From the NCBI GenBank assembly GCA_000004695.1, contig CM000155.2, forward strand, positions 1,120,001 to 1,184,000: DNA of 64,000 nt. Reading direction: 5' to 3'. The stretch comes from Dictyostelium discoideum (lineage: Eukaryota). The notes beneath the pieces are model-generated. The model was not told the origin of the DNA and made no database searches. It worked only from the letters and a program-made list of their open reading frames with translations. Position 1 is the first letter of the stretch, and each line of letters opens with the position of its first letter. Both the position numbers and the translations under genes were made by a program. Shown one piece after another: positions 1,898-57,843 of this stretch.

Positions 1898-3685
1898 TTA
1901 AGCTGATCTACTTCCCTTTACACGGTATTTGGAATTAAATCTCTTACTTCCTAAGATACCAGTAATACCAAGTCCAGTTAATAAAATGGCAAACACTGCA
2001 GTTGGAGCTATTAAGAGATCTAAAGAATTAACTTCATCAACGCAAACAATATTTTGAACTTCATCTATGAATGGCATAAGATATGAACATTTAATTAATG
2101 GTACAACTTTATCAGTCCAAAGAGTAGTGAGTGAAGTTAAGATATCATAAAGTTGCATAATTTGTTTTGTAGTATTTACAACTTGTTGGTTGTATTGGCA
2201 ACCACCTTGAGAGCAAGAATTAACAGAACTAACATCTACCCAATCACAAGACATAACTTCGGTAAGAATGGATGGATCACAAGTTGATAAATCACCACAA
2301 GTTGGTGCATTCTTACATTTAACATTAAAGTCATGGACAGTAGTATTGAATAAATAAATACTTAATGTTGTATTGCTACAAGTTAGAGTTGGTGGACAAT
2401 CTAAAACATTTTGTTGATATGGTACTGATAATGGGTTATCATTAGGATAACGTGGGAAAGCCAATTGGCAAGCGTCATTGATTTTATCACAACTTGTATC
2501 GGTTGCATTCTGGAGTAGATTATTAACCAATGATTGTAAATCCTCGAAAACAGAGATGGTATTATTGTCATTTTGACAGCCTTCAAAGACCTGTTCGATA
2601 ATTGGATTTGTAAAATTTGATAATTGTTGTACACCAGTTGTATCATAACTTATACAAATATCAGCAACGACACTATTGATTGGATAATGAACAGAGAAAA
2701 CGATCCACATGAATGGAATTAAAATTACCAAAGCGATAGAGGCTGCACGTGAAATTCTTGGTAGACCAATTAGTGCTGATACACCAATGAGGCCTGCCAC
2801 TACCATGCAAAATACTAAACCGACGATAATGATCTTTGTTCTAATATTATTTATATCCTTTGCGTTGGAACTGATATCCTCGCCTTTACTCTCGAGTTCC
2901 TCACCATCGCTAATCAATTGGGTCAATTGTGATTGAATCTCTTGTTTTTGATCAAATTGTTGATATTTAGTCTCATTTAATTGATTACTAATCTCAATCA
3001 ATTGTTCTAAAGTGTATGAGGTTTTATTGAAAACAGTGTCACTCAAATTGTTAATACCAGAGGTCACAGAGGAATTACCCTTTAAACTTGTAATGAAAAC
3101 TGCAACACAACCTGCAACCATAATTAATGTAACCAATTTTAATATAAAAACTCTACCCTTTGAGTAACCTTCACCAATATCTGGGTCATATTTTGGACCT
3201 GGACAAAGAATACCATGTGTTGGTTTACAACCACCAAAACAAAGACATCTAAAAATCCAAAATATTATACCAAAAATTAATGTAATTGCTGCAATTATAA
3301 AGGTAATTCCTGATAATAATATTACTGCTTCAATATATTCATCCCATTTACAATCTTCAATTGTTGTACCACCACAAAATCCTGATGGATATTTTTCAAG
3401 CTAAAAAAAATAAAATAAAAATAAAAATAAAAAAATAAATATAAAAATAATAATAATAAAAAATTAATAAATTAATAAAAATTAATTTTTCAAATTAATC
3501 AATGAATGAATGATTAAATAACTTACATGACCATCAGTTGTAAAAAATGTATATCTTGCAATATCACGATATCTATTTATAATATCCAATGCTTTTGATT
3601 CTGCATCAGCTTTTACAAATTGATAATTACAATTAATAATTAATAATATGATTAATAATGATAAAATTTTATTTATTTTTATCAT
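1898..3685 (-). CDS. Five-pass transmembrane glycoprotein with a signal peptide and tweety/prominin-like topology. It has 2 exons: 3685..3527 and 3400..1898.
   Basis: Exon 1 is MIKINKILSLLIILLIINCNYQFVKADAESKALDIINRYRDIARYTFFTTDGH, followed by a GTAAGT donor (phase 0). The acceptor is ttttttttag at 3401-3402. Exon 2 (LEKYPSGFCGGTTIEDCKWDEYIEAVILLSGITFIIAAITLIFGIIFWIF...) joins in frame with the 412-aa ORF 1898..3136. Hydrophobic segments give an SP-TM1-TM2-(~90 aa loop)-TM3-TM4-(~230 aa Cys-rich N-glycosylated ectodomain)-TM5 layout. Confidence 0.6.
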
Positions 3686-4939
3686 TTTTTTTTTTATTTT
3701 TTTTTTTATTTATTTTATTTTGTTTTTTTTTTTTTCTAATCTTTTTTTTTTTTTTTTTAGTATAATAATTAAACTATATTATATTATTTTTAAAAATAAA
3801 TAAATAAATTAATGAATAAATTGAAATTATAATAATGATTATATTTGTGGTAAAATAAAATTAAAATAAAAAAATAAAAATAAAACTTTTTTTTTTTTTA
3901 TTTTTTTTTTTTTTGAGTGATATCAGACGTGTGAAATTATAATAATAGAATGAAAAAAAAAAACAAGGGGTTATCAATTGTAAAAAAAAAAACAAAAATA
4001 AAATAAAATAATAAATAAAAAAAAAAATGAAATTATAAATAAAACAAAAATAAAAAAAAAAAGAAAAGAAAAATCAAAAAAATGAAAAAAGGAGTTTGAA
4101 ATCTGACAATCGGTTATTAAAGATAGTGTGATAAAAAAATAAAAAAAAAAATCATAAAAACAACTGACCACCTGTCATTTTTTTTTATTATTTTGAAAAT
4201 TTTTGTGCATTGCCAAAGTGTTTTTACAAAATTGTGTTTTTTTTTTTGGTTGTTTTTTTTTTGGAAATGCCAAAATGTCTTAAAGAAATTTTTTTTTTGT
4301 TTTCTTTTTTTTAACTTTTTTTTATTTGTTTTTTTTTTTTTAAAAAAACCGTCACAAAAAATTGTATTTTAAAACTTAAATATTTGATGTAAAAAATAAA
4401 ATAATATTGGGGAAAACACCACACACTTTGGTTTAAAAATATGAATTTTTCTTAAAATTTAAAGAACTTCTTTGTGTACAATTCTTTTTGGTTTAAAGAG
4501 AACACGACTTGAATTCTTTTTTTTTGTGGCACAATTTTATTAAAAAAAAAATGGTTATTGGTTGGGTATTTGTTTTGGATTCAATCAAAAATAAAATATA
4601 CTTTATAATTGTTTAAAATTATCTTTATTCAAAAGAGATAATATTTTAATAAATTATTGTTTTTTTTTTTTTTTTATATAATCATTTAAATTAAATAATA
4701 ATTAACTTTTTATTTATAAACTATAATTATAATTAAAATTTGATATCACACCTATTTATAAATTAAAATTTTTTTATTTTTTTATTTTTTTTTTTGAATT
4801 CCTTTGTCTTCTGGAAATGTTAAAGGATATTGCTTTTATTGTTTGAAGTTTACTTTTTAATATTGATTAAAGGCAATAAACAATAATAATTGTTTTATGA
4901 AAAAACCTAAAGCAGCTATAAATTTTGATTTTCATCAAA

Positions 4940-5021
4940 GACATCGTAGCGAAGTGGTCTAACGCGTTTGACTTGAAATCAAATCTCCTAGGAGGCGCAG
5001 GTTCGAACCCTGCCGATGTCG
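4940..5021 (+). tRNA. tRNA-Ser (anticodon UGA), 82 nt with a long variable arm.
   Basis: GACATCG...CGATGTC+G forms a 7-bp acceptor stem. The anticodon stem is TTTGA/TCAAA with loop CTTGAAA, giving anticodon TGA. The long variable arm is TCTCCTAGGAGGC. The T arm is GCAGGTTCGAACCCTGC. Confidence 0.9.
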
Positions 5022-5070: not shown

Positions 5071-7637
5071 AAAGGCTCAAGCTAAGAAAAACAACAGCTA
5101 ATCACTATTGTATTCCAGAATCATCTCTCCCAAATATTATCTCATTACGAAATGTTGGAAAATTGGACAGTGACCAGGGACTCAACATGGGACAACCTTG
5201 AAAATGAATTCACCTCACAAGAAATCCTTGAAGTAATAAAACAACTGAACCCACACAAATCTCCAGGTCCAGATGGAATTCCAAACTTATTCTACATAAC
5301 ACACAAAGAAAAACTAGCTCCAATACTGGCCTCAGCATTCAACGACACTCTAAGAAATCCTCATCTAATTAGCAAAAATTACAAAGAAGGCCTCATTATC
5401 ACGATACCTAAAAAGGGAGACCCCGAACTAATCAAAAACAGAAGACCAATTACACTGGCTAACTGTATATATAAAATCCACTCAAAGCTAATAAACAATA
5501 GAATAATCCCAATACTAACGAAAGTGATCAACCACAATCAAAAAGGTTTCGTACCAGGCAGATTCATTCTAGATAATATCATATCAATGAACGAATTAAT
5601 CAACTATTGTAATGATAAAAGAATTAACGGAATAATTACACTATATGATTTCGAAAAAGCTTTTGACTCGATCTCACACGGTTCAATACTTAGATCACTA
5701 CAACACATCAACATTCCAACCAATATAATCAACCTGATAATGAATCTACTCACCAAATCTGAAGCAAGAATTGAAATTAATGGTAGAACTACTATACCCT
5801 TTGAGATCAAAAGAGGAGTTAAACAAGGAGATCCACTATCACCCACCCTGTTCGTCCTTGTAATAGAGGCTTTAGCTAGAAAAATTTTACAAGATGACCG
5901 AATTACTGGCCTTCCTCTAAACAACAGCAACCACAGAGAGAAATTCCCAAAGCTTTGCAGACGACTCGGCTTCAATGGTCCCAGACTCTCAACAACTTGA
6001 ATTAGTACTACAACACTTCAATTCATTTTGCAAAGCCACTTCCTCAAAACTTAACATCGACAAATCTTCATCAATTCTTATAGGCAACCCAGACAATACC
6101 AACCAAAGAATTCCAATATCTACAAATCCAGAAAGATACTTGGGATACTTCTTCACAGGTAAAGGGATAACAAGAAAAATGCCAGAAATATTAAACACAA
6201 TAAGATCATCCTTAGTACTATGGAAAACCACTGACTCAACAATCAAAACCAAAACCAACATCCTCAAAGCATTCGCACTCTCTAAATTAACCTACTATTC
6301 ATATGTAGAGAACTTTAAGGAAGAGGAATTAAACCAAATCAATAAATTAGTCGAATGGTTTTTATCGGCACCAAACAACAAAAATGCTAGTGGATTTCAA
6401 GTTATTAATTTAATGAGAACCAAAAGAGCAAGATACCCACTAAAAGTAGGGGGCTGGAACATTTGGAATATAGAATTGAGACAACTGGCGCAGAAACTTT
6501 GGATCATAAACCAGTTCATCCTAGCACTAGAAACCAAACAAACAAACTCATCTCATCACAAAAGCTGGGAATATCAGATCCAAAAAAACAAATTCACATC
6601 CAGATACCTAAAAGAAAACTTAGATGAATGGAACAAAATAAGAATAAAAAAAGCAATCTTCAACAATAATCTCACATCCATAAAAAACGAAAATGGACAA
6701 CCACTTTCACTGGCAGAATGGTATACCACAATTCAAGACCAAAATCCAACCATCCCTAAAACGGAATTCCAATCATCTCTAAACTTAAGAGGCTACAGCT
6801 ATAATCAACTCTTCAACAACATACTGAAGATAAAAGACCCTAAAACAAGAGACACAATGTTTAGATTCCATGCCAGATGCCTTCCAATAAACTACCTTCA
6901 CAACAAACAATGCCCACTCTGCAAAGAAGATATGAGCAAAGACCCATACGGTCACCTGTTCTTCTCATGCAAGAAAACAAAACAATTCATAAAAATAAAT
7001 AAACTCAAAAATTTCATCTATATTACCACAGGCAAAGGTAAAAACTGGCACCATACAAGAATTAGGCAAAATAACAATTTCATTAATAGAATAACTCCAA
7101 AATTATCACCGACAGCCAAAAAAGATCAAGAAGTGAATGCAGATTACGCCAACCACAGATTCCACAAAGAATACTTTGAATGGAACTATAAAGCAATAGA
7201 CTATGATCTAACCAGATCATTCGCATATAGAAACCTAATGGCCCTTATCCTCCACAACATTTGGATTTGGATTTGCAATCAAATATACAGTGAAGATCCT
7301 TTAACAAATGAATCACTATCATACAGCTCCCTTCTAAAGAAATGGCACAAATTGGCCACTCTAGAATACATCAAAAAAGCAAAAGATCTGAAAAACTTAT
7401 CAGCAAAAGACCATAATAATTTCAAAGATCCTAAGATCCTTCTCACCTCAACGATCAAGCTAAGAAAAACAACAGCTAATTACTATTGTATTCCAGAATC
7501 ATCTCTCCCAAATATTATATCTTTTGATCAATTCATATGATTAAAATAACCCTTCAGCTTAAATGATAAGCCTATAAATAAATATTAAATAAAACTCGTA
7601 TTAACACAGATGGACATATATCAATCTTGTTAATCCA

Positions 7638-9629: not shown

Positions 9630-9711
9630 CGACATCGGCAGGGTTCGAACCTGCGCCTCCTAGGAGATTTGATTTCAAGTCAAACGCGTTAGACCACTTC
9701 GCTACGATGTC
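9630..9711 (-). tRNA. tRNA-Ser (UGA), copy 2.
   Basis: Exact reverse complement of the 82-nt gene at 4940-5021. About 28 bp of 5' flank (cagctataaattttgattttcatcaaag) and 49 bp of 3' flank are shared with copy 1. Confidence 0.9.
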
Positions 9712-9760
9712 TTTGATGAAAATCAAAATTTATAGCTGAAATACTATTAGAAATAGGGAG

Positions 9761-10423
9761 ATCGAAAAAAACAAACAACAACAACAATCTCTTTTTTTGA
9801 TTATTTCATTTTTCATATAAAAAAGACTTAAAAAACAAATAAATAAATAAATAAACTATTTTAAAAAGCCATCTTTTTACTTTATTGTAATTTATTATTT
9901 GTTTCGTTTTGAGAATTTTGCGTAGCAAAATTTTCAAAAAAAAAGCAAAAAATAATCAGATCGAAAAAAACAAACAACAACAACAATCTCTTTTTTTGAT
10001 TATTTCATTTTTCATATAAAAAAGACTTAAAAAACAAATAAATAAATAAATAAACTATTTTAAAAAGCCATCTTTTTACTTTATTGTAATTTATTATTTG
10101 TTTCGTTTTGAGAATTTTGCGTAGCAAAATTTTCAAAAAAAAAGCAAAAAATAATCAGATCGAAAAAAACAAACAACAACAACAATCTCTTTTTTTGATT
10201 ATTTCATTTTTCATATAAAAAAGACTTAAAAAAAAAATAAATAAATAAATAAACTTTTTTAAAAAGCCATCTTTTTACTTTATTGTAATTTATTATTTGT
10301 TTCGTTTTGAGAATTTTGCGTAGCAAAATTTTCAAAAAAAAAGCAAAAAATAATCAGATCGAAAAAAACAAACAACAACAACAATCTCTTTTTTTGATTA
10401 TTTCATTTTTCATATAAAAAAGA

Positions 10424-10480
<57 letters not shown>
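9761..10480 (+). repeat. Tandem repeat of ~198 bp (A-module-like unit), 3 full copies plus a ~70 bp partial copy ending in A~55.
   Basis: Units begin at 9761, 9959, 10157 and 10355 with (G/C)AGATCGAAAAAAACAAACAACAACAACAATCTC.... The copies are almost identical. Confidence 0.85.
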
Positions 10481-40194: not shown

Positions 40195-40758
40195 CTTTCT
40201 TCCCTACAGGCTAGTGCATTATTATGGTTAGACTTCAAAGTTGTTGTTTGGGGTACTTGGAATTCTGATCTTATGTGTAAAGTTTGTATGGGTCAAATTC
40301 CAATGGATTCAAACTATATTTTCTCACGTTACTATGGTGTTAGAGCAACTCCACCAACTTTAATTGGTGGTATTCTTCGTAATGAAACTGATGCTTGGTT
40401 CACACCATATTGTAATAACCCAGCTTCACCATACTATGTTAAACCAAAATGTGCATGTTACAACTCAACTTCACCATTGGTAATTAATCAAGTCTCTTCC
40501 TCTACTTGGTATGAAGGCCCAAACAACACCAAATACAGTCAATTCGATGGTAAAATCTTAAACAATGCTAATTACGCTGTTAACAATCCAACTTTCACAT
40601 CCTCACCATCAGGTGTTAAACCACGTACTATTTGGGGTTTAAAGAATGAAGGTGGTGATATTTGGTCATTATCATATTACCCAGTCATTAGCGGAAATGG
40701 TGGAGCTTTCCCATTTGGTTATATTAGCACTCAAGAAATTACCTTTAAAGCTAATTAA
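39633..40758 (+). CDS. Secreted CDA/TadA-fold zinc deaminase with a novel Cys-containing C-terminal domain, paralog 1. Exon 1 is 39633..40073 and exon 2 is 40210..40758. The intron donor reads TTAAGT instead of GTAAGT. As it stands the sequence encodes only a 154-aa deaminase-domain protein, ending with the stop at 40095-40097.
   Basis: Signal peptide MKLIISLLILICTLKLSFG. Helix-1 HEHRMAYILAISK. Zinc ligands HGEVAAINNC ...(28 aa)... YTTGEPCAMC, i.e. the [HC]-[AGV]-E ... PCxxC CMP/dCMP/tRNA-adenosine deaminase signature. Several N-glycosylation sequons are present. Exon 2 begins ASALLWLDFKVVVWG, the continuation of the PCxMCxxAllw helix. It is in frame only if the 136-nt TT...AG interval is removed. 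Confidence 0.6.
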
Positions 40759-40867
40759 TTATTTATTACCAATTAAAAAGTCTTACCGACTTTATATAAT
40801 CATAAAAAAAAAAAAAAAAAAAATTAATCCGAATAAATTAATAAAAAGTAATACCTTTTTGTTCACA

Positions 40868-41160
<293 letters not shown>

Positions 41161-41453
41161 TAATATCTTAACTTCACTATTTGGAGGTGAAATTTTACCA
41201 ATTGTTGGGGTAACATCTGGCTTAGTAAATGGAGCAATCGAAGGCTTTACAAAGGGGGTTTTTAATTGGTAATTTAATTTAATCTACAAATAACTAACCA
41301 ATTCTCATCAATATTTTGGACTGAAAAAAAAAAAAAAAAAGAAAATCTATTGAAATAGTAAAAATAATTGGAGAATTGGAATATTAAAAAAAGTAATATA
41401 AAAAGTATTTAATTAAATATAATAATAAAAAAAAAATCCGCATTTTTTATATT

Positions 41454-41990
41454 TTATTTAATATAAAGAGATATAATTAACATAAGTTTATGCAGTTGGT
41501 TGGAAAGCAATTTGGTCTTCACCATCGATGATGTAACCGAATGAGAAGGTTTGACCTGTTGGATGACTGGATACCATTGGAGAGCCCAAGTATTTTTGGT
41601 TTCATCAACAGCAAGACCCCAGATTGAGTTTGGACGGAGTGGAGATGAGGTGAAGGTTGGGTTGGTGACGGTTACTGAACCAGTGTTGGTGATGATACCA
41701 CCGAATTGAGAGACAGTTTTACCGTTTTCGAACCATGAGGAGTAAAGAGTTTGATCGATCTTTAATGGTGAAGTAGTGTTGGTACAGACACATTGTGGTT
41801 TAATGTAATAGATTGAAGTTGGTTTGCTACAGTATGAACCGAAACAGGCGTCAGCTTCAGTACGTAAGACACCACCGATAACTCTTGGTGGGCTAGCTCT
41901 TAAACCATAGTAACGACCCAAGATGTATGAGGAATCCATTGGGATGTTTGACATTCAGATTTTGCAAAGTAAATCACTGTTGAAGGTACC
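41454..41990 (-). pseudogene. Truncated, frameshifted 3' copy of the deaminase gene, C-terminal domain only.
   Basis: Identical to 56701-57240 apart from a 1-bp deletion (cctgttgg here versus cctggttgg there) that shifts the frame (...WYPVIQQVKPSHS). The homology breaks at 41990. The shared 3' flank is AAAATCCGCATT...ATAAGTTTATGCAGTTGG. Confidence 0.8.
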
Positions 41991-43269
41991 CCAGACAATG
42001 TGCTGAATGGTCTATTCGTGCAAACCGGGTAATAAAAGGTATTTTTTTTAAAAAAAAAAATGGACTACATGGGCTGAACTGTTTATTAGTGCCAACCGGG
42101 CTGATACAAGGTTTTTTTTTTTTTAAAAAAAAATAAATTGACTGCAAAGATTGACTGATAAAAGGTTTTTTTTTTAAAATGGGCAAAAATAAGGTTTTAA
42201 ATTTTTGATACGGACTGCACGGGCTAATCGAGATAAAAAAAAAAATATCACACTGACTACAAATTATTTTTTTAAAATAAAAAAGGACTACACAGGCTTA
42301 TAAAAAGGTTTTTTTTTAAAAAATTAAAAAAAAAAAAAAATAAAAACAATAAAAAAACGATAAAAACATTACAATTTTTTAATTTTTTTATTTTTTCTTT
42401 TTTAAATGTATTTAAAAAATAAAATATATTTAATAAGAAAATATGAATATATTGTTTGAGACTTTGCAAAAAAAAAAAAAAACCTGAATGTATGTAGTAT
42501 TTTTTATTATTAATTTTTATTTTTTTTTATTTTTATTTTCTGGAAAATTAAAATAAAAAATCACTTTGCATATTATTTTAAGTTTTGTATTATTAATAAA
42601 TAAATAAATTATTTTACATTCTTATTTAGGAGAAAACCAATAAAATAAAAAATAATAAAATGAAATAATAAATAACGTTAATTTTTTTTTTTTTAGGTAA
42701 TGTGTGGTAAATTTTGAAAAAAAAATAAAATTTAATTAAAGTAATAACTAACAATTTTACATTTATATTTAGGAGTTTAAATCAAAAAAAATGAAATTAA
42801 AAATAATCAAATTAATAATATTAATAAATAAATAAAAAAAAAAAAAAAAAAAAAAATAAAATTACCGCATTATTTCATTTTTATTATTTTTTATTGAATA
42901 CTTTTTTTTTAAAAATAGATGGTTTTTTTAAAAATATTTAAGCCCACGTATATCCTAAAAAAACCTTTAAATAAATAACCGTTTCAAAAAAAGACGGTTA
43001 TTTATTTAAATATCTAAAAAAATAATTTTGTAAGGGCTGTACTCAACCCTTTAAAGTGCTGTACGGGCTATGCCCAAAATTAAAAACTTTGAGCACAACC
43101 CGCACAGCACTCTTAAGTGTTGCGCACAGTCCTTACAATGTTTTTACAATTTTGTTTGGGCTGTTGGGGCTTATAGTGCCAAAGTTAAAATTTTTCTCAG
43201 TGGTCGTGTATCTTTTTATATATATATGTTTTACAATTGAACTATACCAGATTATTTAATTTATCTAAT

Positions 43270-44220
43270 TGTTAGCTGGTTGTAAAGAAATACCTTCTAA
43301 TAATTCTTCATTTTCATCGGTATAATCGACCAAGTCCAAACCAATTTTATTACTCTTGTCTTTATGAATTTGTTTTTTACATGAACGTTCAGTTCTGATA
43401 GCTTCAAAATACTTTGATAATATTAGTACTGCTAATGATGCTTTATTTTTATAGGTGGAACTAAAAACATTCTTTACAATACTAAGTTTGCTCTAAGGTG
43501 TAACATTTCTTGAATTCCCAGAATCTTTTTTTAATTTTAAACCTTGCTTTAAAGGTTGATTTTGAATTTGTTTACATGTTGCAGTGATACCATGATTTGA
43601 TAATAATTTATCTCTAATAGTTGATACACTTGGATCATCTTCAAATAATTTTTTTAAATGGAGTTGATTGGTTTCATCCCATAATTGATCACCAATAAAT
43701 TTAAAATTTGGAAGTTTAGTTAAATTATAGTTTCTTCCATCAACCAAAGTTGTGAAGAATTTTGATTAGCAACATTTTCCATCATTTGTGGTCTGTTAGC
43801 ATATGCAAAGAGAGCAGTTACAAAAAGATTTTCTTGATGCATGTCCCATGCTTGGCCAACCTTAGTACCATTATTAAATTTAACCTCTTGCAAGATTGGA
43901 ATTTCTTTCTTGGCACCTTCTATTCTGTCAACAAAACTATTAACTTGAGTACTATTAATGTTGATACCAGAGCACTTCATTTCAACAGAGGTATGAATAA
44001 TTTCCACCATGCATGACGAAGGCTTTAACAAAGGCTTGGATTGATGGCAAACTCCAGAGATATGCATCTTTGCCAGAGTAAACAAGTTGGCAGATACTTT
44101 GATAGAATGAGAACATTCGGTTATCGAAATTTAACTTTCCTTCAGGTTGTTGAATACCTTCACACAAATTATTAGGAATTAAACTAATATTTGGATTATC
44201 AAAAGTACTAAAATCAACAA
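43270..44220 (-). pseudogene. Degenerate copy (multiple frameshifts) of the 345-aa gene at 50735-51772.
   Basis: ORF fragments 43493..43747, 43720..44085 and 43982..44167 each align to successive parts of the 50735-51772 protein (KLPNFKFIGDQLWDETNQLHLK..., GTKVGQAWD.HQENLFVTALFAYANRPQM, CEGIQQPEGK). A T~110 homopolymer lies upstream at 44222-44350. Confidence 0.75.
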
Positions 44221-44257
44221 AATGAACATTTTTTTTTTTTTTTGAAACATATTTATT

Positions 44258-44352
<95 letters not shown>

Positions 44353-44565
44353 TTTACATGTATGTTTATTTATTTATTTATATTTATTTATTATTATATT
44401 CATTTGAAACCTTTTATTCATTATATTTTTTTTTTTAATAAATTATAGATATTATATATATAGAATACTATGGGTAAAAGGAAATAATAATGTTTGTTTG
44501 TAGTTGAAAATATTAAAATTAAAAATAAAAAAAAAAATATAACAAAAAAGATTTTATTTTAATAA

Positions 44566-44606
<41 letters not shown>

Positions 44607-45562
44607 CTTAAAATTTTTTTTTAAAAATTGTGTTTTTATATTTTCCAAACATACTTCATTTAAGGGGGGTCAGATTTACAATCATTTTAAAGGAATGGGG
44701 TTATAAATTTTCTTAAAATAATATTTTAAAATATCTTTGAAGTTAAACATATTTATGTATTTATATAATGATACGATTAGTTTATCAAAATGTGTTTGGT
44801 TGTTTATTATTATAATTGGTTGTTTATTATTATTATTATTTTTTTTAATTAATTACTGCATTTCTTTATTAGATTTAATAATAGTTTAGAAATAATAAAA
44901 TAATATATAAAAAATAAAAAAAAATAATATTAGTTGAAATAATAAAATTTTATATGGTATAATAAATAATTAAATAGTTTGAAATAATATATTAGTAAAA
45001 TTAAATAGTAAAATTAAAATAATAATTTGATACATATATTATTTTATAGATAAATAGTTCAATCATTGAAATAATAACAACAACAACAATAATAATAATA
45101 ATAATTATATATATATCATATTAATAATTAAAACTAGTTTGAAATTAATGGTAATTTAAAGGTTGATATAAATAAATTCAAAAAAATTTGTATGTATTAT
45201 TTTAGTTACTACCTACTACTTTTAAACATGTTGTATTAACATTATATTCAAATTTTTTATTACAATTCCTATAGATACAACTGTCTTTGATAAAAACATT
45301 TCACCTCAAATTAGTAAGTATTTTATTTTTATTATAGTATAGGTAACACTAGCGTTATTCTACAACTTTTTATATATTAACCTTGATAATAAATAATTCT
45401 TTAATCCGATTACTATAAAGATGAAATTTTAGATCTATTTGAATTTGGTATGTTTTAAATTTTATTATTATTATTTATAATTGCAATTATTAATTCTCAA
45501 CATTGGTGTATTAATATAAATTCAATAATTATTTAGATACTACAAAATCATCATATGAAGAT

Positions 45563-46070
45563 GTGATTGAAGAATACAGTAAATTTGAAAATGATTCTCT
45601 TGGATCATTTGAATATCTTGATTACAGTGATTTACGTTTATTATCTAAAAGAAAGTGGAATAATAAAGAAGCTTTAATCATAGGTAATGGTAAAAGTAAT
45701 TATAAAACAACTGTACAAATAAAAGGTGATTTGTTAGATAAAGGTTATTTTAGAACTGAACTTGCTATTGATACATAGTTTGATAGAAATAAGTATTAAT
45801 AAATAAAATGGTTAAAAATTTTAAAAGTACTCAAGAAACCATCACCAGTCATTTCAAGAAATTGGAGTCCAGATGAACAAAAAGCATTAATGGTTGAAGT
45901 TTCTACACTTGGTAATAAATCTGAAATCAACTGGTTTTTCATTTCTCAACAACTCTTTTTAAAAGGTATTAGTAGAAATGCAAGAGAATGTCAAAGAAAA
46001 CATGAATCAATCCAATATGTTGGTCTTTCAGGTAATCCAAAAGCTAAATTTAAAGGAACTTTTGATTAGT
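45563..46070 (+). pseudogene. Disrupted copy of the Myb/SANT-like gene at 53788-54303.
   Basis: Same N-terminal sequence (IEEYSKFENDSLGSFE). A stop follows ELAIDT, and there are frameshifts through the SANT-like region. Confidence 0.7.
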
Positions 46071-46359
46071 TTGTCATATATTTTAAATAAATAACATCTT
46101 CAATATAAAAAATTTCCAATAATTTTATTTTCTTTTTTTTTTGTTATTGATAGTACTTATAACAAAAAATGAATGATAAATAATTAAATTCTAAAAATAA
46201 AATTTTTGATTTAAAAAATAAAATAAAAAATTCAAAAAATAGAATGATTACACGGTGTTTATGATAATAATTTTTTTTTTAATTTTAAAAATTTTTTTAT
46301 TTTAATTTTTAATTTTTTTTTTTATTTTTTTTACCAATTCCAGTCTGTAAACAACATTC

Positions 46360-46696
46360 ATGTATCGATCGTTGTCTACTGGTCCATGTCGATCATGTAA
46401 GTTAAAAACAAGTCCATATGTCGTTGTGGAAAGACCATTGAAAATAGACAATGTGGTTCAACAAGATATGACAAAGCATTTACTTGTGATGTTTGCAAAA
46501 TTCATGAATGTTGTCCAAGCACACCAACACATGATGAAGCAGGTAACCAAGATTGTATAATTTATTCTACATTTTCTTCACTCGATCCAAATTCACAAGA
46601 ATATGCAAATAAATTACAAATTGAGCCATTACAGTCTATATCAATAGTATCACCAAAAATTATTAAAAAAATTGAACCAATCCTTATAAAGATTGT

Positions 46697-46785
<89 letters not shown>

Positions 46786-46790
46786 TTTAA
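46360..46790 (+). CDS. Cys-rich, poly-Ser-tailed ORF fragment(s). The exon structure is unresolved.
   Basis: One frame reads SICRCGKTIENRQCGSTRYDKAFTCDVCKIHECCPSTPTHDEAGNQDCIIYSTFSSLDPNSQEYANKLQIEPLQSISIVSPKIIKKIEPILIKIV(S)n. The same coding block recurs at 55562-55894. A different frame, ...CIDRCLLVHVDHVS, precedes a GTAAGT. Confidence 0.3.
46690..46786. repeat. (AGT)n microsatellite, about 32 units (poly-Ser in frame).
   Basis: A perfect agt periodicity is visible. Confidence 0.9.
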
Positions 46791-47970: not shown

Positions 47971-48477
47971 TTATGCAGTTGGTTGGAAAGCAATTTGGTC
48001 TTCACCGTCGATGATGTAACCGAATGAGAAAGTTTGACCTGGTTGGATGACTGGATACCATTGGAGAGCCCAAGTATTTTTGGTTTCATCAACAGCAAGA
48101 CCCCAGATTGAGTTTGGACGGAGTGGAGATGAGGTGAAGATTGGGTTGGTGACGGTTACTGAACCAGTGTTGGTGATGATACCACCGAATTGAGAGACAG
48201 TTTTACCGTTTTCAAACCATGAGGAGTAACGAGTTTGATCAATCTTTAATGGTGAAGTAGTGTTGGTACAGACACATTGTGGTTTAATGTAATAGATTGA
48301 AGTTGGTTTGCTACAGTATGAACCGAACCAGGCGTCAGCTTCAGTACGTAAAACACCACCGATAACTCTTGGTGGGCTAGCTCTTAAACCATAGTAACGA
48401 CCAAAGATGTATGAGGAATCCATTGGGATGTTTGACATACAGATTTTGCAAAGTAAATCACTGTTGAAGGTACCCAT
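47971..48477 (-). pseudogene. Second truncated 3' copy of the deaminase gene (C-terminal domain, frame intact, no deaminase exon).
   Basis: Near-identical to 56701-57210. The homology breaks at about 48476 (gaaggtaccca|tcttataag), and Trp is replaced by an ATG at the breakpoint. More than 170 bp of shared 3' flank (47800-47970 versus 56530-56700). Confidence 0.8.
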
Positions 48478-49191
48478 CTTATAAGACCAATTAATTCCAA
48501 TGTGGCTTCATCTGTTGCAAATCGATTTTCATTTATTAACTCTTATAATAATCTATCAAAAATTAATAAAATTTCTTTTTTTTTAACATATTTTAAAATT
48601 ATTTATTAATTTTTAATAAATTTTATTATTAGTATTATTTTTTTAATATTAAAATTATAAATAAATGATTAATAAATTATTATTATTCACTAAATAATAT
48701 TATTTTTTGATTAATAAATAATTTCTATAATAAATAAGGAATATATTATTTGAAAAAAAATAAAAATTCTTATATTTTAAAATTTTTTATTTACACCCAT
48801 TATTTTTTATCATTTTATTATAGTTTTTAATAATATATAATATCATATTGTAACTCAAAAATATCTTGTTTATACTAATATTTATTTAATTTTATGAAAT
48901 GTTCTAAATAGAACATTTAAAAATAACTATTAATATTGAATTAATAATTCAATATTAATTATTGCTAACTTAATTTATTTTAATAAATTGTTTCATTTTA
49001 TATAATAAACTCACTAAACACAACTAAATAATAATTCAAAAATAAATAATAATAATTTAGAATATAGTTTTGTTTCAACATTTTATTATAACACATACAA
49101 TTCAGAAAATAATAATAATTTATTTTATTGTTTTGTTTAAAGGGGTTTTCTCCCGTTGTAATTAAATTTAATTAATTTTAAATTTAATTTT

Positions 49192-49233
<42 letters not shown>

Positions 49234-49414
49234 TTAATTTGAATTTCACAAAAGTTTTCATAATAGATATTAGATACCAGATATTAAAAATGTCACACAA
49301 AATCACCATATAAAATAATAATATAAATTTAAAAATAATTTAATTAAAAAGAAAATAATAATTAATTAGAATAAAATTAAAATAATATAATATTGTAGTT
49401 TAAATTGGATCTAA

Positions 49415-49542
49415 CCCTATCGGCTGAGGTTGGAGTAGTTAACAGATTTGAGTCTGCTCAAATCTGAGGACTATAAAAGGAAACTAGGTTTCTAATTCAA
49501 CCTCAGTAATAAATATATACAAATAATAAAAACGCGATAGGG
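49415..49542 (+). ncRNA. Candidate structured RNA or MITE-like nested inverted repeat (~128 nt), copy 1.
   Basis: Outer stem CCCTATCG/CGATAGGG. Inner stem CTGAGGTTG/CAACCTCAG. Internal hairpin CAGATTTGAG-TCTGCT-CTCAAATCTG and GAAAC-TAG-GTTTC. Duplicated at 54876-55000. Confidence 0.35.
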
Positions 49543-49701
49543 CTACGGTCATTAATTAAATACATGTGTACATTTATTTCTTAAATAATTAATCATTTAT
49601 TTTAATAATAAAATAAATAAATTGAATAATAATAAAACAATAAATAAAATTAATAATAATAAATAATCAAATTTTATTAAATAATTTATTAAAAAAAAAG
49701 A

Positions 49702-50070
49702 ATGTCAACTAATAATAATAATAACAACAATAATAATAATGAAGATATTGATAATGATGAATTGCAACAACAGGATAATGAGGAACAACAACAACAACCA
49801 CAGGTATCAACTTTCAATGAACAGCAACGTCAAATAAGGGAACAGCAACAGGTAATAGATAAACAAAATCAACTTCTTCAACAACACATTCAATTAATAA
49901 ATCAACAATCTCAACAACAATTAAATAACCATTCGACACCACCATCATCACCCAACATTACAACACCAATAACTTCAGCAGCAATAACCAACACAATAAA
50001 GAAATCATTAGGAAAAATTAACACTGATGACACCGACCACCAGTTGTTACACATATATGATAAACTATAG
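49702..50070 (+). CDS. Small poly-N/poly-Q protein (122 aa).
   Basis: MSTNNNNNNNNNNEDIDNDELQQQDNEEQQQQPQVSTFNEQQRQIREQQQVIDKQNQLLQQHIQLINQQSQQQLNNHSTPPSSPNITTPITSAAITNTIKKSLGKINTDDTDHQLLHIYDKL. A rearranged second copy lies at 55163-55688. Confidence 0.45.
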   Translation: MSTNNNNNNNNNNEDIDNDELQQQDNEEQQQQPQVSTFNEQQRQIREQQQVIDKQNQLLQQHIQLINQQSQQQLNNHSTPPSSPNITTPITSAAITNTIKKSLGKINTDDTDHQLLHIYDKL

Positions 50071-50734
50071 TTTTATGTTTTAAAAAATGAGAAATTACAA
50101 TAGTATTATTTCCTATTAATTGTTGTATATTATTAAATTATAGGTTTATGTTTTAAAAAATGAGAAATTACAATAGTATAATTTCTCAAAATATGGTAGA
50201 TAAATAAATTTTTTATAGTTTAATGACAAATTAATATTCAATTTTAATTAAAATATTATTAGATTTTATCAATTTTTAATTTATATTAAAATATATTTTT
50301 ATTATGGCCAGATTCTTTTTTATTATTTTATGATAATTTAATAATAAAGTGTGATTAATTATTAATTAGAAATTAATATTAGTTTGTTATAAATTTTATT
50401 AAATTATAATATCATTTCTTAAAATATAAGTTTTTGCGGGTTTAATTTCTCACAAAATAGTAAAATTTCTTAGTTTTTTTTCTCTGGTGAAATAAAATAA
50501 TATAAAATAAAATAAAATAAAATAAAACAAAATAAAACAAAACAAAACAAAACAATTTGAACCCATTTCATCTTCTAAATACACGAAAATTAAAATAAAA
50601 AACACATGTGTTGCAACACTTTTTTTTTTTATTACTTTTTTTATTATTTTTTTTATTATTTTTTTTTTATGATCTTTTTATATATATATTTTACAATTTT
50701 ACTATTCTATAATACCAGATTATTTTATTTAGAT

Positions 50735-51769
50735 CTAATTGCTAGCTGGTTGTAAAGAAATACCATCTAATAATTCTTCTTCATTTTCATCGGTATAATC
50801 GACCAAGTCCAAACCAATTTTAATACTCTTGTCTTTATTAATTTGTTTTTTACATGAACGTTCAGTTCTGATAGCTTCGAAATACTTTGATAATATTAGT
50901 ACTGCTAATGATGCTTTATTTTTATAGGTGGAACTAAAAACATTCTTTACAATACTAAGTTCTTCTTTGCTCCAAGAGGTAACATTTCTTGAATAAGTAG
51001 AAACTTTTTTTAATTTTAAACCTTGCTTTAAAAGTTGACTTTGAATTTGTTTACTTGTTACAGTGATACCATGATTTGATAATAATTTATCTCTAATAGT
51101 TGATACACTTGGATCATCTTCAAATAATGTTTTTAAATGGAGTTGATTGGTTTCATCCCATAATTGATCACCAATAAATTTAAAATTAGGAAGTTTAGTT
51201 AAATTATAGTTTCTTCCATCAACCAAATTTGTGAAGAATTTTGGACTTAAATTATAACCATTTAAATGAAAAATGTTGCTAATCATTTGTGGTCTGTTAG
51301 CATATGCAAAGAGAGCAGTTACAAAAAGATTTTCTTGATGCTCGTCCCATGCTTGGCCAACCTTAGTACCATTATTAAATTTAACCTCTTGCAAGATTGT
51401 TGGAATCTCTATCTTGGCACCTTCTATTCTGTAAACAAAACTTTTAACTTGAGAACCATTAACGTTGATACCAGAGCACTTCATTTCAACAGAGGTATGA
51501 GTTTTATTTCCACCATGCATGACGAAAGCTCTAACAAAAGCTTGGATTGATGGCAAAGTCCAGAGATATGCATCTTTGCCAGAGTAAACAAGTTGGCAGA
51601 TACTTTGATAGAATGAGAACATTCGGTTATCGAAAAAAAATAATACCTTTCCTTCAGGTTGTTGAATACCTTCACACAAATTATTAGGAATTAAACTAAT
51701 ATTTGGATTATCCAAAGTACTAAAATCAACAACATGAACATTTTTTTTTGTTTTTGAAACCTTTTTACT

Positions 51770-51772
<3 letters not shown>
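50735..51772 (-). CDS. Hypothetical 345-aa protein with a C-terminal Myb/SANT-like segment.
   Basis: Intact ORF. The C-terminus reads TSWSKEELSIVKNVFSSTYKNKASLAVLILSKYFEAIRTERSCKKQI (W-x...-RxxxxCxxQ SANT-like pattern). The degenerate paralog is at 43270-44220. A poly-T lies upstream at 51775-51820. Confidence 0.5.
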
Positions 51773-51821
<49 letters not shown>

Positions 51822-52607
51822 TTAATAAATTATTGATATTATATATATATAATATTATGGGTATAGTTGAAAATATGAAAATTAAAAATAAAAAAAAAAT
51901 ATAACAAAAAAGATTTTATTTTAATAACAAAAATAAAAAAAAAAAAAAAAAAAAAAAAATCTTAAAATTTTTTTTTAAAAATTGTGTTTTTATATTTTCT
52001 AAACATACTTCATTTAAGGGGGTCAGATTTACAATCATTTTAAAGAGATGGGGGGTTATAAATTTTCTTAAAATAATATTTTAAAATATCTTTGAAGTTA
52101 AACATATTTTAAAATAATATTTTAAAATATCTTTGAAGTTAAACATATTTATGTATTTATATAAATATATATAATGATACGATTAGTTTATCAAAATGTG
52201 TTTGGTTGTTTATTATTATAATTGGTTGTTTATTATTATTATTTTTTTTTTTTTTAATTAATTACTGCATTTCTTTATTATTAGATTTAATAATAGTTTA
52301 GAAATAATAAAATAATATATAAAAAATAAAAAAAAATAATATTAGTTTGAAATAATAAAATTTTATATGGTATAATAAATAATTAAATAGTTTAAAATAA
52401 TATTAGTAAAATTAAATAGTAAAATTAAAATAATAATTTGATACATATATTATTTTATAGATAAATAGTTCAATCATTGAAATAATAACAACAACAACAA
52501 CAACAATAATAATAATAATTATATATATATCATATTAATAATTAAAGCTAGTTTGATAAATTATTATATATTAGCATATTAAATAAAATTAATAATAATT
52601 TATAAAA

Positions 52608-53354
52608 ATGGATGAACCTTCAACAGATAAAATTTTAATTGGTGCTCAAATCATTACAACAGTTATAACATTGTTCACTGGTGTTTTTGAATTTATTATT
52701 GCTGCAAAAAGCAAAATGAAAAGAATGAAAAGTGAACAAATGTTTTCAGTAAATCAAGATGGATTAATACATATTATTAAATCACTATTACCAGGTCGTA
52801 ATATAATTTTCATCAGCAATGCACCAACCAGCACCACAGATCCATCATTCAACAGCCAGACAATGAAAAACTTTTTAAAAGTAATATTTAGATTACTACC
52901 GTTTTTCATTGGTGCTGTCTTTATACATTTAAATATAATACCGTTTCATCATTTAATTATTTTTACTGAAAATGGTAAATGGTACTTTGATAGTATACAA
53001 GAAGAATTAATACCTATTGTAAAAGAAAGATTAAAGCAAATAATGTCATCTCAACCTGATGTCATATTTGCATGTGGTGCTGTGGTAAGGGATATATTTT
53101 ATATGTATCTTGAAGAAGGTTCAATTGAAATGGTTGGTAATAATATATTCGTGTATATAAATAAAGATGGTACGAAAAAAACTATTATTTGTTTTGTTCC
53201 ACACTTTTGTACTCGTAAAGATCATTGGAAGTTTATTGCTCAAGGATTATTATTTATTCATACTCATTTCAAATTATCAACATTCAATACAAATTATTTT
53301 GAAAAAAACAAACCAGAAATTAATTTTAAAGATATTAGATATATAGTTCTTTAA
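52608..53354 (+). CDS. Hypothetical 248-aa protein with an N-terminal TM helix. It is encoded inside an ~0.8 kb copy-specific insertion flanked by a 9-bp direct repeat.
   Basis: Intact ORF. 52557-53364 is absent from the paralogous block at 45130-45145. CTAGTTTGA occurs at 52548-52556 and 53356-53364. Confidence 0.45.
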   Translation: MDEPSTDKILIGAQIITTVITLFTGVFEFIIAAKSKMKRMKSEQMFSVNQDGLIHIIKSLLPGRNIIFISNAPTSTTDPSFNSQTMKNFLKVIFRLLPFFIGAVFIHLNIIPFHHLIIFTENGKWYFDSIQEELIPIVKERLKQIMSSQPDVIFACGAVVRDIFYMYLEEGSIEMVGNNIFVYINKDGTKKTIICFVPHFCTRKDHWKFIAQGLLFIHTHFKLSTFNTNYFEKNKPEINFKDIRYIVL

Positions 53355-53787
53355 ACTAGTTTGAAATTAATGGTAATTTAAAGGTTGATATAAATAAATT
53401 CAAAAAAATTTGTATGTATTATTATTTTAGTTACTACCTACTACTTTTAAACATGTTGTATTAACATTATATTCAAATTTTTTATTACAATTCCTATAGA
53501 TACAACTGTCTCTGACAAAAACATTTCACCTCAAAGTAGTAAGTATTTTATTTTTATTATAGTATAGGTAACGCTAGCGTTATTCTACAACTTTTTATAT
53601 ATTAACCTTGATAATAAATAATTCTTTAATCCGATTACTATAAAGATGAAATTTTAGATCTATTTGAATTTGGTATGTTTTAAATTTTATTATTATTATT
53701 TATAATTGCAATTATTAATTCTCAACATTGGTGTATTAATATAAATTCAATAATTATTTAGATACTACAAAATCATCATATGAAGAT

Positions 53788-54303
53788 GTGATTGAAGAAT
53801 ACAGTAAATTTGAAAATGATTCTCTTGGATCATTTGAAAATCCTGATTACAGTGGTTTCCATTTATTATCTAAAAGAAAGTGGAATAATAAAGAAGCTTT
53901 AATCGTAGGTATTGGTAAAAGTAATAATAAAACAACTGTACAAATAAAAGGTGATTTGTTAGATAAAGGTTATTTTAGAACTGAACTTGCTATTGATACA
54001 TACTTTGATAGAAATAAGGTATTAATAAATAAAATGGTTAAAAATTTTAAAAGTACTCAAGAAATTATAAAACCATCACCAGTCATTTCAGGAAATTGGA
54101 GTCTAGATGAACAAAAAGCATTAATGGTTGAAGTTTCTACACTTGGTAATAAATCTGAAATCAACTGGTTTTTCATTTCTAAACAACTCTTTTTAAAAGG
54201 TATTAGTAGAAATGCAAGAGAATGTCAAAGAAAACATGAATCAATCCAATATGTTGGTCTTTCAGGTAATCCAAAAGGTAAATTTAAAAGAACTTTTGAT
54301 TAG
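53788..54303 (+). CDS. Myb/SANT-domain protein, one exon of a multi-exon gene. The displayed ORF starts at an alternative GTG start.
   Basis: GNWSLDEQKALMVEVSTLGNKSEINWFFISKQLFLKGISRNARECQRKHESIQ is a SANT/Myb repeat. Upstream, DEILDLFEF is followed by a GTATGT donor at about 53675 and a tatttag acceptor at about 53762, and it splices in frame (DTTKSSYEDVIEEY...). No in-frame ATG lies immediately upstream. Confidence 0.55.
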   Translation: MIEEYSKFENDSLGSFENPDYSGFHLLSKRKWNNKEALIVGIGKSNNKTTVQIKGDLLDKGYFRTELAIDTYFDRNKVLINKMVKNFKSTQEIIKPSPVISGNWSLDEQKALMVEVSTLGNKSEINWFFISKQLFLKGISRNARECQRKHESIQYVGLSGNPKGKFKRTFD

Positions 54304-54641
54304 TTTGTCATATATAAATAAATAACATATTCAATATAAAAAATTTCCAATAATTTTATTTTCTTTTTTTTTTTTTATTGATAGTACTTTTAACAAAAAA
54401 TGAATGTAAATAATTAAATTGTAAAAATATAATTTTTGATTTAAAAAATAAAATAAAAAATTCAAAAAATAAAATAATTACACCGGGTGTCTAATTTGAA
54501 TGTTACTATTAATAATTTTTTTTTTAATTTTAAAAATATTTTTATTTTAATTTTTTATTTTTTTTTTTATTTTTTTTACCAATTCCAGTCTGTAAACAAA
54601 ATCATTAAATACTTAATTAATTTTAAATTAAATTTAATTTT

Positions 54642-54686
<45 letters not shown>

Positions 54687-54875
54687 TTTGAATTTCACAA
54701 AAGTTTTCATAATAGATATTAGATACCAGATATTAAAAATGTCACACAAAATCACCAAATTTATATATTTTATAAAATAATAATATAAATTTAAAAATAA
54801 TTTAATTAAAAAGAAATAATAATTAATTAGAATAAAATTAAAATAATATAATATTGTAGTTTAAATTGGATCTAA

Positions 54876-55000
54876 CCCTATCGGCTGAGGTTGGAGTAGT
54901 TAACAGATTTGAGCGAACTCAAATCTGAGGACTATAAAAAGAAACTAGGTTTCTAATTCAACCTCAGTAATAAATATATACAAATAAAAACGCGATAGGG
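54876..55000 (+). ncRNA. Candidate structured RNA or MITE-like nested inverted repeat, copy 2.
   Basis: Same stems as 49415-49542. The internal hairpin loop differs (CAGATTTGAG-CGAAC-TCAAATCTG) while the pairing is preserved. Confidence 0.35.
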
Positions 55001-55162
55001 CTAGGGTCATCAATTAAATATATGTGTACATTTATTTCTTAAATAATTAATCATTTATTTTAATAATAATAAAATAAATAAATTCAATAATAATAAAACA
55101 ATAAATTAAATTAATAATAATAATAAATAACCAAATTTTATTAAAAAAATTTATTTTAAAAG

Positions 55163-55688
55163 AATGTCAACTAATAATAATAATAACAACAATAATAATA
55201 ATGAAGATATTGATAATGATGAATTGCAACAACAGGATAATGAGGAACAACAACAACAACAACCACAGGTATCAACATTCAATGAACAGCAACGTCAAAT
55301 AAGGGACAGCAGCAGGTACTAGATAAACATTACCACAAGTAAATACATTGTCATATCTTGTTGAACCACACCACATTGTCTATTTTCAGTGGTCTTTCCA
55401 CAACGACAGATGGACTTGTTTTTAACTTACATGATCCACATGGACCAGTAGACAACGATCGTGTAACAACTGGTGGTCGGTGTCATCAGTGTTAGTTTTT
55501 CCTAATGATTTCTTTATTGTGTTGGTTATTGCTGCTGAAGTTATTGGTGTTGTAATGTTGGGTGATGGTGGTGGTGTCGAATGGTTATTTAATTGTTGTT
55601 GGGATTGTTGATTTATTAGTTGAATGTGTTGTTGAAGAAGTTGACTTTGTTTGCAAAATTCATGAATGTTGTCCAAGCACACCAACAC
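55163..55688. pseudogene. Second copy of the poly-Q gene, broken by an internal inversion.
   Basis: The 5' half is on the + strand (MSTNNNNNNNNEDIDNDELQQQDNEEQQQQQPQVSTFNEQQRQIRDSSRY*). The 3' half (LLQQHIQLINQQSQQQLNNHSTPPPSPNITTP...TDDTDHQLLH) is encoded on the minus strand (55422..55688) and fused to DRCLLVHVDHVS, which is homologous to 46390-46430. Confidence 0.7.
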
Positions 55689-55894
55689 ATGATGAAGCAG
55701 GTAACCAAGATTGTATAATTTATACTAGATTTTCTTCACTCGATCTAAATTCACAAGAATATGCAAATAAATTACAAATTGAGCCATTACAGTCTATATC
55801 AATAGTATCACCAAAAACTATTAAAAAAATTGAACCAATCCTTATAAAGATTGTAAGTAGTAGTAGTAATAGTAGTAGTAGTAGTAGTATTTAA

Positions 55895-56700: not shown

Positions 56701-57335
56701 TTATGCAGTTGGTTGGAAAGCAATTTGGTCTTCACCGTCGATGATGTAACCGAATGAGAAAGTTTGACCTGGTTGGATGACTGGATACCATTGGAGAGCC
56801 CAAGTATTTTTGGTTTCATCAACAGCAAGACCCCAGATTGAGTTTGGACGGAGTGGAGATGAGGTGAAGGTTGGGTTGGTGACGGTTACTGAACCAGTGT
56901 TGGTGATGATACCACCGAATTGGGAGACAGTTTTACCGTTTTCAAACCATGAGGAGTAACGAGTTTGATCGATCTTTAATGGTGAAGTAGTGTTGGTACA
57001 GACACATTGTGGTTTGATGTAATAGATTGAAGTTGGTTTGCTACAGTATGAACCGAACCAGGCGTCAGCTTCAGTACGTAAGACACCACCGATAACTCTT
57101 GGTGGGCTAGCTCTTAAACCATAGTAACGGCCAAAGATGTATGAGGAATCCATTGGGATGTTTGACATACAGATTTTGCAAAGTAAATCACTGTTGAAGG
57201 TACCCCAGACAATGGTTTTGAAGTCAGCCCACAAAAGAGCAGCTGAGCACATGGCGCATGGCTCTATAGGAGTTTGTTAGTTGTTCAATTGATTGATCAC
57301 ATGATCATTCATTATTATTTTTTAAAAAAATAAAA

Positions 57336-57395
<60 letters not shown>

Positions 57396-57843
57396 AGTAT
57401 TTGTAGATTAAAACATTATTATTACATATTAATTACTTACCTCCAGAAGTGTAAAGAGTGTAGTTGGTGAAAGAGGTGATACCGTGTAAAGCAGTACAGT
57501 TGTTGATGGCAACGATTTCACCATGTGAAATGATATTTGGTTTACCAGTGTTGACACCAAGACACATTAAAGTACCATTTTGGTGGTAGATTGAAGCAAC
57601 GAATTTCTTATTTTGTTGTTTGGCGATGGCAAGGACGTAAGCCATACGTTCTTCGTGCATACCTAATTCTTGTGGATCGAGATCAGCTGGAGTGAGAACT
57701 TGAGCATTGTCGGTTGGTTTCCAGCTTACTTTTTGAGTGGCTGTACATTCACCGATGGTTGAAATGTTTGGATTGAATTCATCGCATGCAAATGATAATG
57801 CAATAAATGCGAGTAAAATAGTTAATAATAAAGCAATCTTCAT
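56701..57843 (-). CDS. Secreted CDA/TadA-fold zinc deaminase with a Cys-containing C-terminal domain, paralog 2 (intact). It has 2 exons: 57843..57441 and 57263..56701 (321 aa).
   Basis: Signal peptide MKIALLLTILLAFIALSFA. HEERMAYVLAIAK. HGEIVAINNC...YTLYTSGG|EPCAMCSAALLWADFKTIVWG spans the intron, with a GTAAGT donor in phase 1 and a cctatag acceptor. The C-terminal domain is NSDLLCKICMSNIPMDSSYIFGRYYGLRASPP...CSKPTSIYYIKPQCVCTNTTSP...WYPVIQPGQTFSFGYIIDGEDQIAFQPTA. Confidence 0.8.

Follow-up and report, generated by a model that had tools for sequence, protein, structure and literature searches.

The locus described here lies in a 64-kb stretch of Dictyostelium discoideum DNA (the window, meaning the whole stretch that was analysed), which has a GC content of ~15–30% and carries Dictyostelium-type genes for Kelch/F-box, CH-domain, ComC-like and secreted deaminase-CBM49 proteins. 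Two regions of the window, copy A (43210–46357) and copy B (50672–54602), are paralogous in self-BLAST on both sides of an indel. The sequence that distinguishes copy B had been described, in the initial annotation, as a gain or loss inside an "accessory block"; the locus, on D. discoideum chromosome 6, is instead that of mybR, a eukaryotic gene with spliced exons. In copy B, mybR lies on the forward strand and begins with an intact, ATG-started open reading frame (ORF) of 248 codons (52608–53354), which is exon 1 of the annotated gene (Q54DP7/XP_629825.2), followed by exons 2 to 5 (53360–54303), the last of which bears a weak Myb/SANT-like match. Transcribed divergently from mybR, on the reverse strand, is DDB_G0292094 (50735–51772), an intact gene whose product of 345 aa is an orphan protein for which no homologue was found.

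Both genes have degenerate counterparts in copy A. The mybR counterpart (45138–46069, forward strand) corresponds to exons 2 to 5, has neither exon 1 nor a start codon, and shows in-frame stops together with 1-nt and 8-nt deletions in its exon-5 equivalent. The DDB_G0292094 counterpart (43268–44260, reverse strand) has lost its ATG and displays a stop, frameshifts and eight small deletions relative to copy B. All of the coding-region indels in the two copy-A genes (10/10) correspond to bases missing from A, and since the frames of copy B are open, these ten indels are polarised as deletions in A. Copy A is a degenerate tandem duplicate, consisting of a pair of pseudogenes. In the newer D. discoideum assembly (GCA_054883475.1), a gene of 320 aa is annotated over the copy-A pseudogene (positions 2190–4212 of the corresponding locus, L001, or ~44768–46790 of the window); this model takes an ATG mini-exon of the intergenic flank as its start, extends into a downstream Cys-rich/poly-Ser ORF, and is probably a chimera of gene prediction in which the stops are bypassed by splicing.

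The indel between the two copies is delimited by a 9-mer, CTAGTTTGA, which is found exactly three times in the 64 kb (starting at 45134, 52548 and 53356); dinucleotide-preserving shuffles would give 0.31 occurrences per window. In copy A, the single CTAGTTTGA (45134–45142, forward strand), which would be the junction of the deletion proposed below, is immediately followed by AATTAATGG, and in copy B the order is CTAGTTTGA, 799 bp (52557–53355), CTAGTTTGA and AATTAATGG. The spacing of the two copy-B repeats is 808 bp, which is also the size of the indel when one repeat copy is counted in. The copy-specific segment of 799 bp, on the forward strand, is made up of an AT-rich leader of 51 nt, the ORF of 747 nt and 1 nt beyond it. 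The left repeat (52548–52556) is located in intergenic/leader DNA of 9% GC, 52 nt upstream of the mybR ATG, and the right repeat (53356–53364) contains, at 53358–53359, the AG used as acceptor of RefSeq intron 1, exon 2 running from 53360; both are on the forward strand. The 9-mer layout, the length of 799 bp and the intact ORF of 248 aa are as initially described. No filler interrupts the junction, a clean one at which the exact microhomology amounts to 9 bp, and the chance of finding an exact 9-mer at both breakpoints, calculated from base composition, is ~5e-6 per site, which ties the 9-bp repeat to the indel event. The base at position –1 of the repeat is an A in copy A and at the right repeat of copy B, and a G at the left repeat of copy B; given this shared A, the homology may at first have extended to 12 bp (AAACTAGTTTGA).

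The presence/absence difference between the paralogous copies holds both in self-BLAST and in the second D. discoideum assembly, where the same empty/filled layout is found at locus L001, with 99.7% identity over 21 kb. An assembly artefact was considered and is ruled out by the identical configuration of this independent assembly. The comparison of other strains that had been recommended covers this one assembly, in which the layout is unchanged. Around the indel, the divergence between copies is uneven: a tract of ~750 bp with the junction at its centre (44869–45620 in copy A, equivalent to ~52280–52547 plus 53365–53845 in copy B) has ~1.2% mismatches, versus ~6% farther out. This low-divergence tract suggests a recent non-allelic gene conversion, stopping at the heterology or predating it. 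Since conversion across the site would either copy or erase the segment, the indel is probably younger than the tract, and the 808-bp difference would probably be a young one.

As judged from sequence, the 0.8-kb segment corresponds to the predicted 5' leader, start codon and first coding exon of the already annotated mybR. Over the exon-1 portion of each model, the product of the ORF shows 100% identity with the N-terminal part of MYBR_DICDI (Q54DP7)/XP_629825.2 and with that of KAM9944905.1, the protein from the newer assembly GCA_054883475.1. More generally, the window exons reproduce the annotated proteins of mybR (Myb-like protein R of Dictyostelium discoideum), with no sequence difference. 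The ORF had first been viewed as a gene standing on its own, a view with which the public annotations disagree, as it is exon 1 of mybR in every one of them. All three public models start at 52608 and then splice to the downstream Myb/SANT-like exons, as established by exact spliced mapping, and they differ in how exon 1 is joined to the rest of the gene. The RefSeq/UniProt model, also mapped exactly, comprises 52608–53132, 53360–53411, 53500–53538, 53646–53672 and 53762–54303, with a first intron of 227 nt (53133–53359, GTTGGT...CTAG). In the newer-assembly model, exon 1 extends to 53345 and coding resumes at 53384, continuing as in RefSeq, after a first intron of 38 nt (53346–53383). In the older model, exon 1 ends at 53214 and coding resumes at 53646, leaving a first intron of 431 nt (53215–53645). 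The exon-1 junction thus has a donor that is weak in one model, and an intron of 38 nt or 431 nt in the others. The donors of exons 2 to 4 are strong and canonical (GTATGT, GTAAGT and GTATGT). The median D. discoideum intron is 104 bp (PMC4683709), and the same source also deals, as background, with the lengths and the loss of Dictyostelium introns and with direct repeats; a literature search for mybR itself returned nothing relevant.

Does the ORF necessarily act as the first exon of the Myb gene? There is no in-frame ATG within exons 2 to 4, and the frame of exon 2 is shut just upstream by the TAG within CTAGTTTGA, so that the Myb exons need an upstream start exon; the ORF is the sole coding material upstream of them, as counted for this exon-1 role. 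RefSeq intron 1 (53133–53359) is open throughout in frame (73 codons), with a coding-like codon score resembling that of exon 1, and the chance of such an open frame across the intron is ~5e-4 as estimated by shuffling. Given this open intron and three models that disagree, it is not secured that the Myb gene must begin with this ORF as its exon 1. The splice pattern annotated for mybR is doubtful, and either the protein sequence on record is probably in error where exon 1 is joined, or a stand-alone product of 248 aa exists. In addition, a candidate upstream ATG mini-exon is found in both copies (at ~44768 and ~52176 of the window), which may leave room for the ORF to lie inside a first intron. 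The transcript structure of mybR needs checking before the predicted protein is relied on. The match to Myb_DNA-binding (PF00249) is Myb-like only, with a score of 16.9 bits (E = 0.007) under the gathering cut-off of 24.4, and it maps to residues 325–370 of the predicted window protein P0002, in exon 5 and outside the 808-bp segment.

The ORF product has two hydrophobic stretches (approximately residues 9–33 and 88–119, by hydropathy), after which an alternating alpha/beta region is predicted, and it carries two motifs, FACGAVVRDIFYMY and CFVPHFC, the first of which had been called Gly-rich and contains a single Gly. The product had also been qualified as membrane-anchored: the two hydrophobic stretches are indeed present, the anchoring is what hydropathy alone would indicate, and a membrane-tethered Myb-like factor is, read in the same way, a possible product of the gene. 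No Pfam family was recovered for the ORF product, even at E values up to 10. Exhaustive phmmer searches of 1.84 billion representative proteins retrieved no relative beyond mybR itself, one further match being a low-complexity false hit. The profile and structure searches advised in the initial annotation were equally blank, with no match by phmmer against PDB and single-sequence AlphaFold2 models of low pLDDT (45 for the full length and 44 for residues 47–248). Exact-sequence look-ups gave no record for P0002 or for the bare ORF. A reading of the NAP...HFC motifs as pointing to a uracil-DNA-glycosylase-like (UDG-like) alpha/beta fold was a guess that found no support. The GC content of the ORF (28.6%) and its codon score are in line with those of neighbouring D. 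discoideum genes.

The likely origin of the difference between the two copies, and the one we favour with good confidence, is a recent deletion in pseudogene copy A, mediated by microhomology, that removed exon 1 together with the 5' leader. In this scenario, a chromosome 6 block of ~3–4 kb, containing the divergent pair DDB_G0292094 (reverse strand) and mybR (forward strand) and forming part of a repeat unit of 6.5–8.7 kb, would have been duplicated in tandem, after which copy B (50.7–54.6 kb) would have been kept intact and copy A (43.2–46.4 kb) would have turned into a pair of pseudogenes. Later, copy A would have lost 808 bp via recombination between two CTAGTTTGA repeats (possibly AAACTAGTTTGA at first), one of them situated 52 nt 5' of the mybR start codon and the other at the end of the exon-1 ORF, where the RefSeq intron-1 acceptor is found. 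The event could have proceeded through replication slippage, microhomology-mediated end joining (MMEJ) or single-strand annealing (SSA), each of which would leave one repeat and a clean junction, and the piece removed would have comprised the 5' leader, the start codon and the entire first coding exon. If the deletion took place in copy A, the apparent insertion in copy B is the ancestral state.

This deletion resembles microhomology-mediated deletions in duplicated pseudogenes in that two repeats are present in the full copy and one at the clean junction of the short copy, and in that copy A has many small deletions and disabling mutations. That the other copy had undergone a deletion between direct repeats was one of the two options of the initial annotation, and it gains support from the pseudogenisation of that copy and its run of other deletions; the 808-bp loss is the largest of this deletion series in the decaying duplicate. 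We infer from parsimony that the event was a deletion, not an insertion, and we likewise infer its repair pathway, slippage, MMEJ and SSA being indistinguishable here from sequence; no orthologue of the ORF (phmmer, 1.84 billion representative proteins) or of DDB_G0292094 was found in other species. One feature fits this deletion less easily, namely the tightness of the breakpoints around the ORF (51–60 nt before the ATG and 1–10 nt past the stop), a fit that a random deletion would not quite be expected to produce, and that would come naturally with a gene-sized insertion.

Such an insertion, in which the 51-nt leader and the 248-codon ORF would have entered copy B at CTAGTTTGA after the duplication with a 9-bp target-site duplication (TSD), was the other option initially put forward, as the footprint of a mobile element, and we consider it very unlikely. 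The same holds, with the same low probability, for the version in which the inserted segment came to serve the Myb exons as a new start exon or became a nested gene in their first intron, to which the candidate ATG mini-exon common to both copies would lend itself. The 9-bp repeat exactly flanks the segment and is present as a single copy at the empty site of copy A, but a deletion between repeats predicts the same flanking layout, so that the TSD-like repeat does not discriminate between the two. The segment ends hug the ORF (51 nt ahead of the ATG and 1 nt beyond the stop), and this orphan ORF resembles a complete coding unit up to its own stop, with no kinship to the remainder of the locus. 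Against this, the segment lacks the other hallmarks of a mobile element: it shows no terminal inverted repeats beyond those expected at random (with up to 2 mismatches allowed, the longest such pairing in the 10 possible registers spans 7 nt, for null 95th and 99th percentiles of 6 and 9, and the other inverted repeats around the segment are AT-rich and only ~75% matching), no long terminal repeats, no A-run at either end on either strand, and no similarity in Pfam to a transposase, reverse transcriptase or integrase. A search for further copies, also recommended at the outset, found no second copy of the 799-bp segment in the 64-kb window, no copy of the segment or the ORF in metagenome, viral or prokaryote collections, and no extra copy of the ORF in protein collections with the annotated proteins of two D. 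discoideum assemblies. As the low divergence of the flanks marks the event as recent, an insertion should still have a recognisable donor, and the lack of one in these collections disfavours this reading. Moreover, the composition and codon usage of the ORF are native to D. discoideum, the copy devoid of the segment is the one visibly decaying by deletions, and the recognisable retroelement sequence of the window lies beside tRNA genes, 40 kb off. Some DNA transposons, such as Mutator-like elements, have 9-bp TSDs; like them, the segment is flanked by a 9-bp repeat and absent from a paralogous empty site, but unlike them it lacks terminal inverted repeats, a transposase and other copies, and its content is the first exon of a host gene. 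Were the insertion true, it would be an exon or gene acquisition caught in the act, creating a putatively membrane-tethered Myb-like protein, and its delivery would require a mechanism that needs no terminal repeats.

Two further histories can be weighed against the deletion in copy A. Non-LTR elements such as TRE give target-site duplications of variable length, and the ORF could in principle be a processed, intronless mRNA copy inserted by a reverse transcriptase of this type. The ORF is indeed intronless with a short leader, the flanking repeat is short, as repeats left by target-primed reverse transcription typically are, and the window holds a retroelement-like ORF with a reverse-transcriptase domain; but the segment has neither a 3' UTR nor a poly(A), stopping 1 nt past the stop codon, and no parental gene was detected by phmmer among 1.84 billion representative proteins, D. 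discoideum included, which makes retroposition extremely improbable. A more complex history, in which gene conversion or unequal exchange itself made or removed the 808 bp, for example through template switching during repair, would be compatible with the dip in divergence from ~6% to ~1.2% over the ~750 bp centred on the junction, and with the irregularity of the array, whose units measure 6479 and 8730 bp and include internal and inverted sub-duplications. A conversion tract over the junction would nevertheless copy or erase the ORF, leaving the indel as a separate and later event, and a simple microhomology deletion suffices to account for the exact 9-bp repeat, so that we hold this alternative to be unlikely as well.

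If the deletion in copy A is the right reading, the locus provides an example of the decay of a tandem duplicate in the AT-rich D. discoideum genome, in which a start exon has been lost by deletion between short repeats, on top of smaller deletions. The segment itself is the already known first exon of an annotated gene, and its absence from the paralogue most likely reflects the ordinary decay of a pseudogene.

Several other features of the window may be mentioned. The tandem array to which the two copies belong has been rearranged more than once. Sub-duplications are seen in its second unit, in direct orientation (49161–49865 versus 54604–55329, and 46490–46731 versus 55648–55889) and inverted (49861–50052 versus 55652–55461), and a Cys-rich/poly-Ser ORF (55562–55894) is included in them. 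The boundaries of the 6.5–8.7 kb tandem units are marked by the deaminase-CBM49 genes, which form a small family (39633–40758 on the forward strand, and 41454–41954, 47971–48477 and 56701–57843 on the reverse strand) with a common architecture, consisting of a hydrophobic, signal-like N-terminal leader, a cytidine/dCMP-deaminase-like domain and a CBM49 carbohydrate-binding domain; two of the copies look truncated. A 208-codon "ORF" at 40646–41272 consists mainly of a poly-Tyr run from a TAT-type simple repeat and almost certainly does not represent a gene. Three identical tRNA-Ser(UGA) genes are located at 4940–5021, 9630–9711 and 13095–13176; a reverse-transcriptase ORF (5152–5997) directly adjoins the first and a 199-bp tandem repeat (9751–10448) adjoins the second, surroundings that match the pattern that would be expected of tRNA-targeted Dictyostelium retroelements. 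Finally, a separate tandem duplication of ~2.4 kb occupies 14651–18385, in which 14777–15989 and 17221–18385 share 91–96% identity, and it contains two paralogous ORFs of ~195 aa (14651–15241 and 17104–17688).
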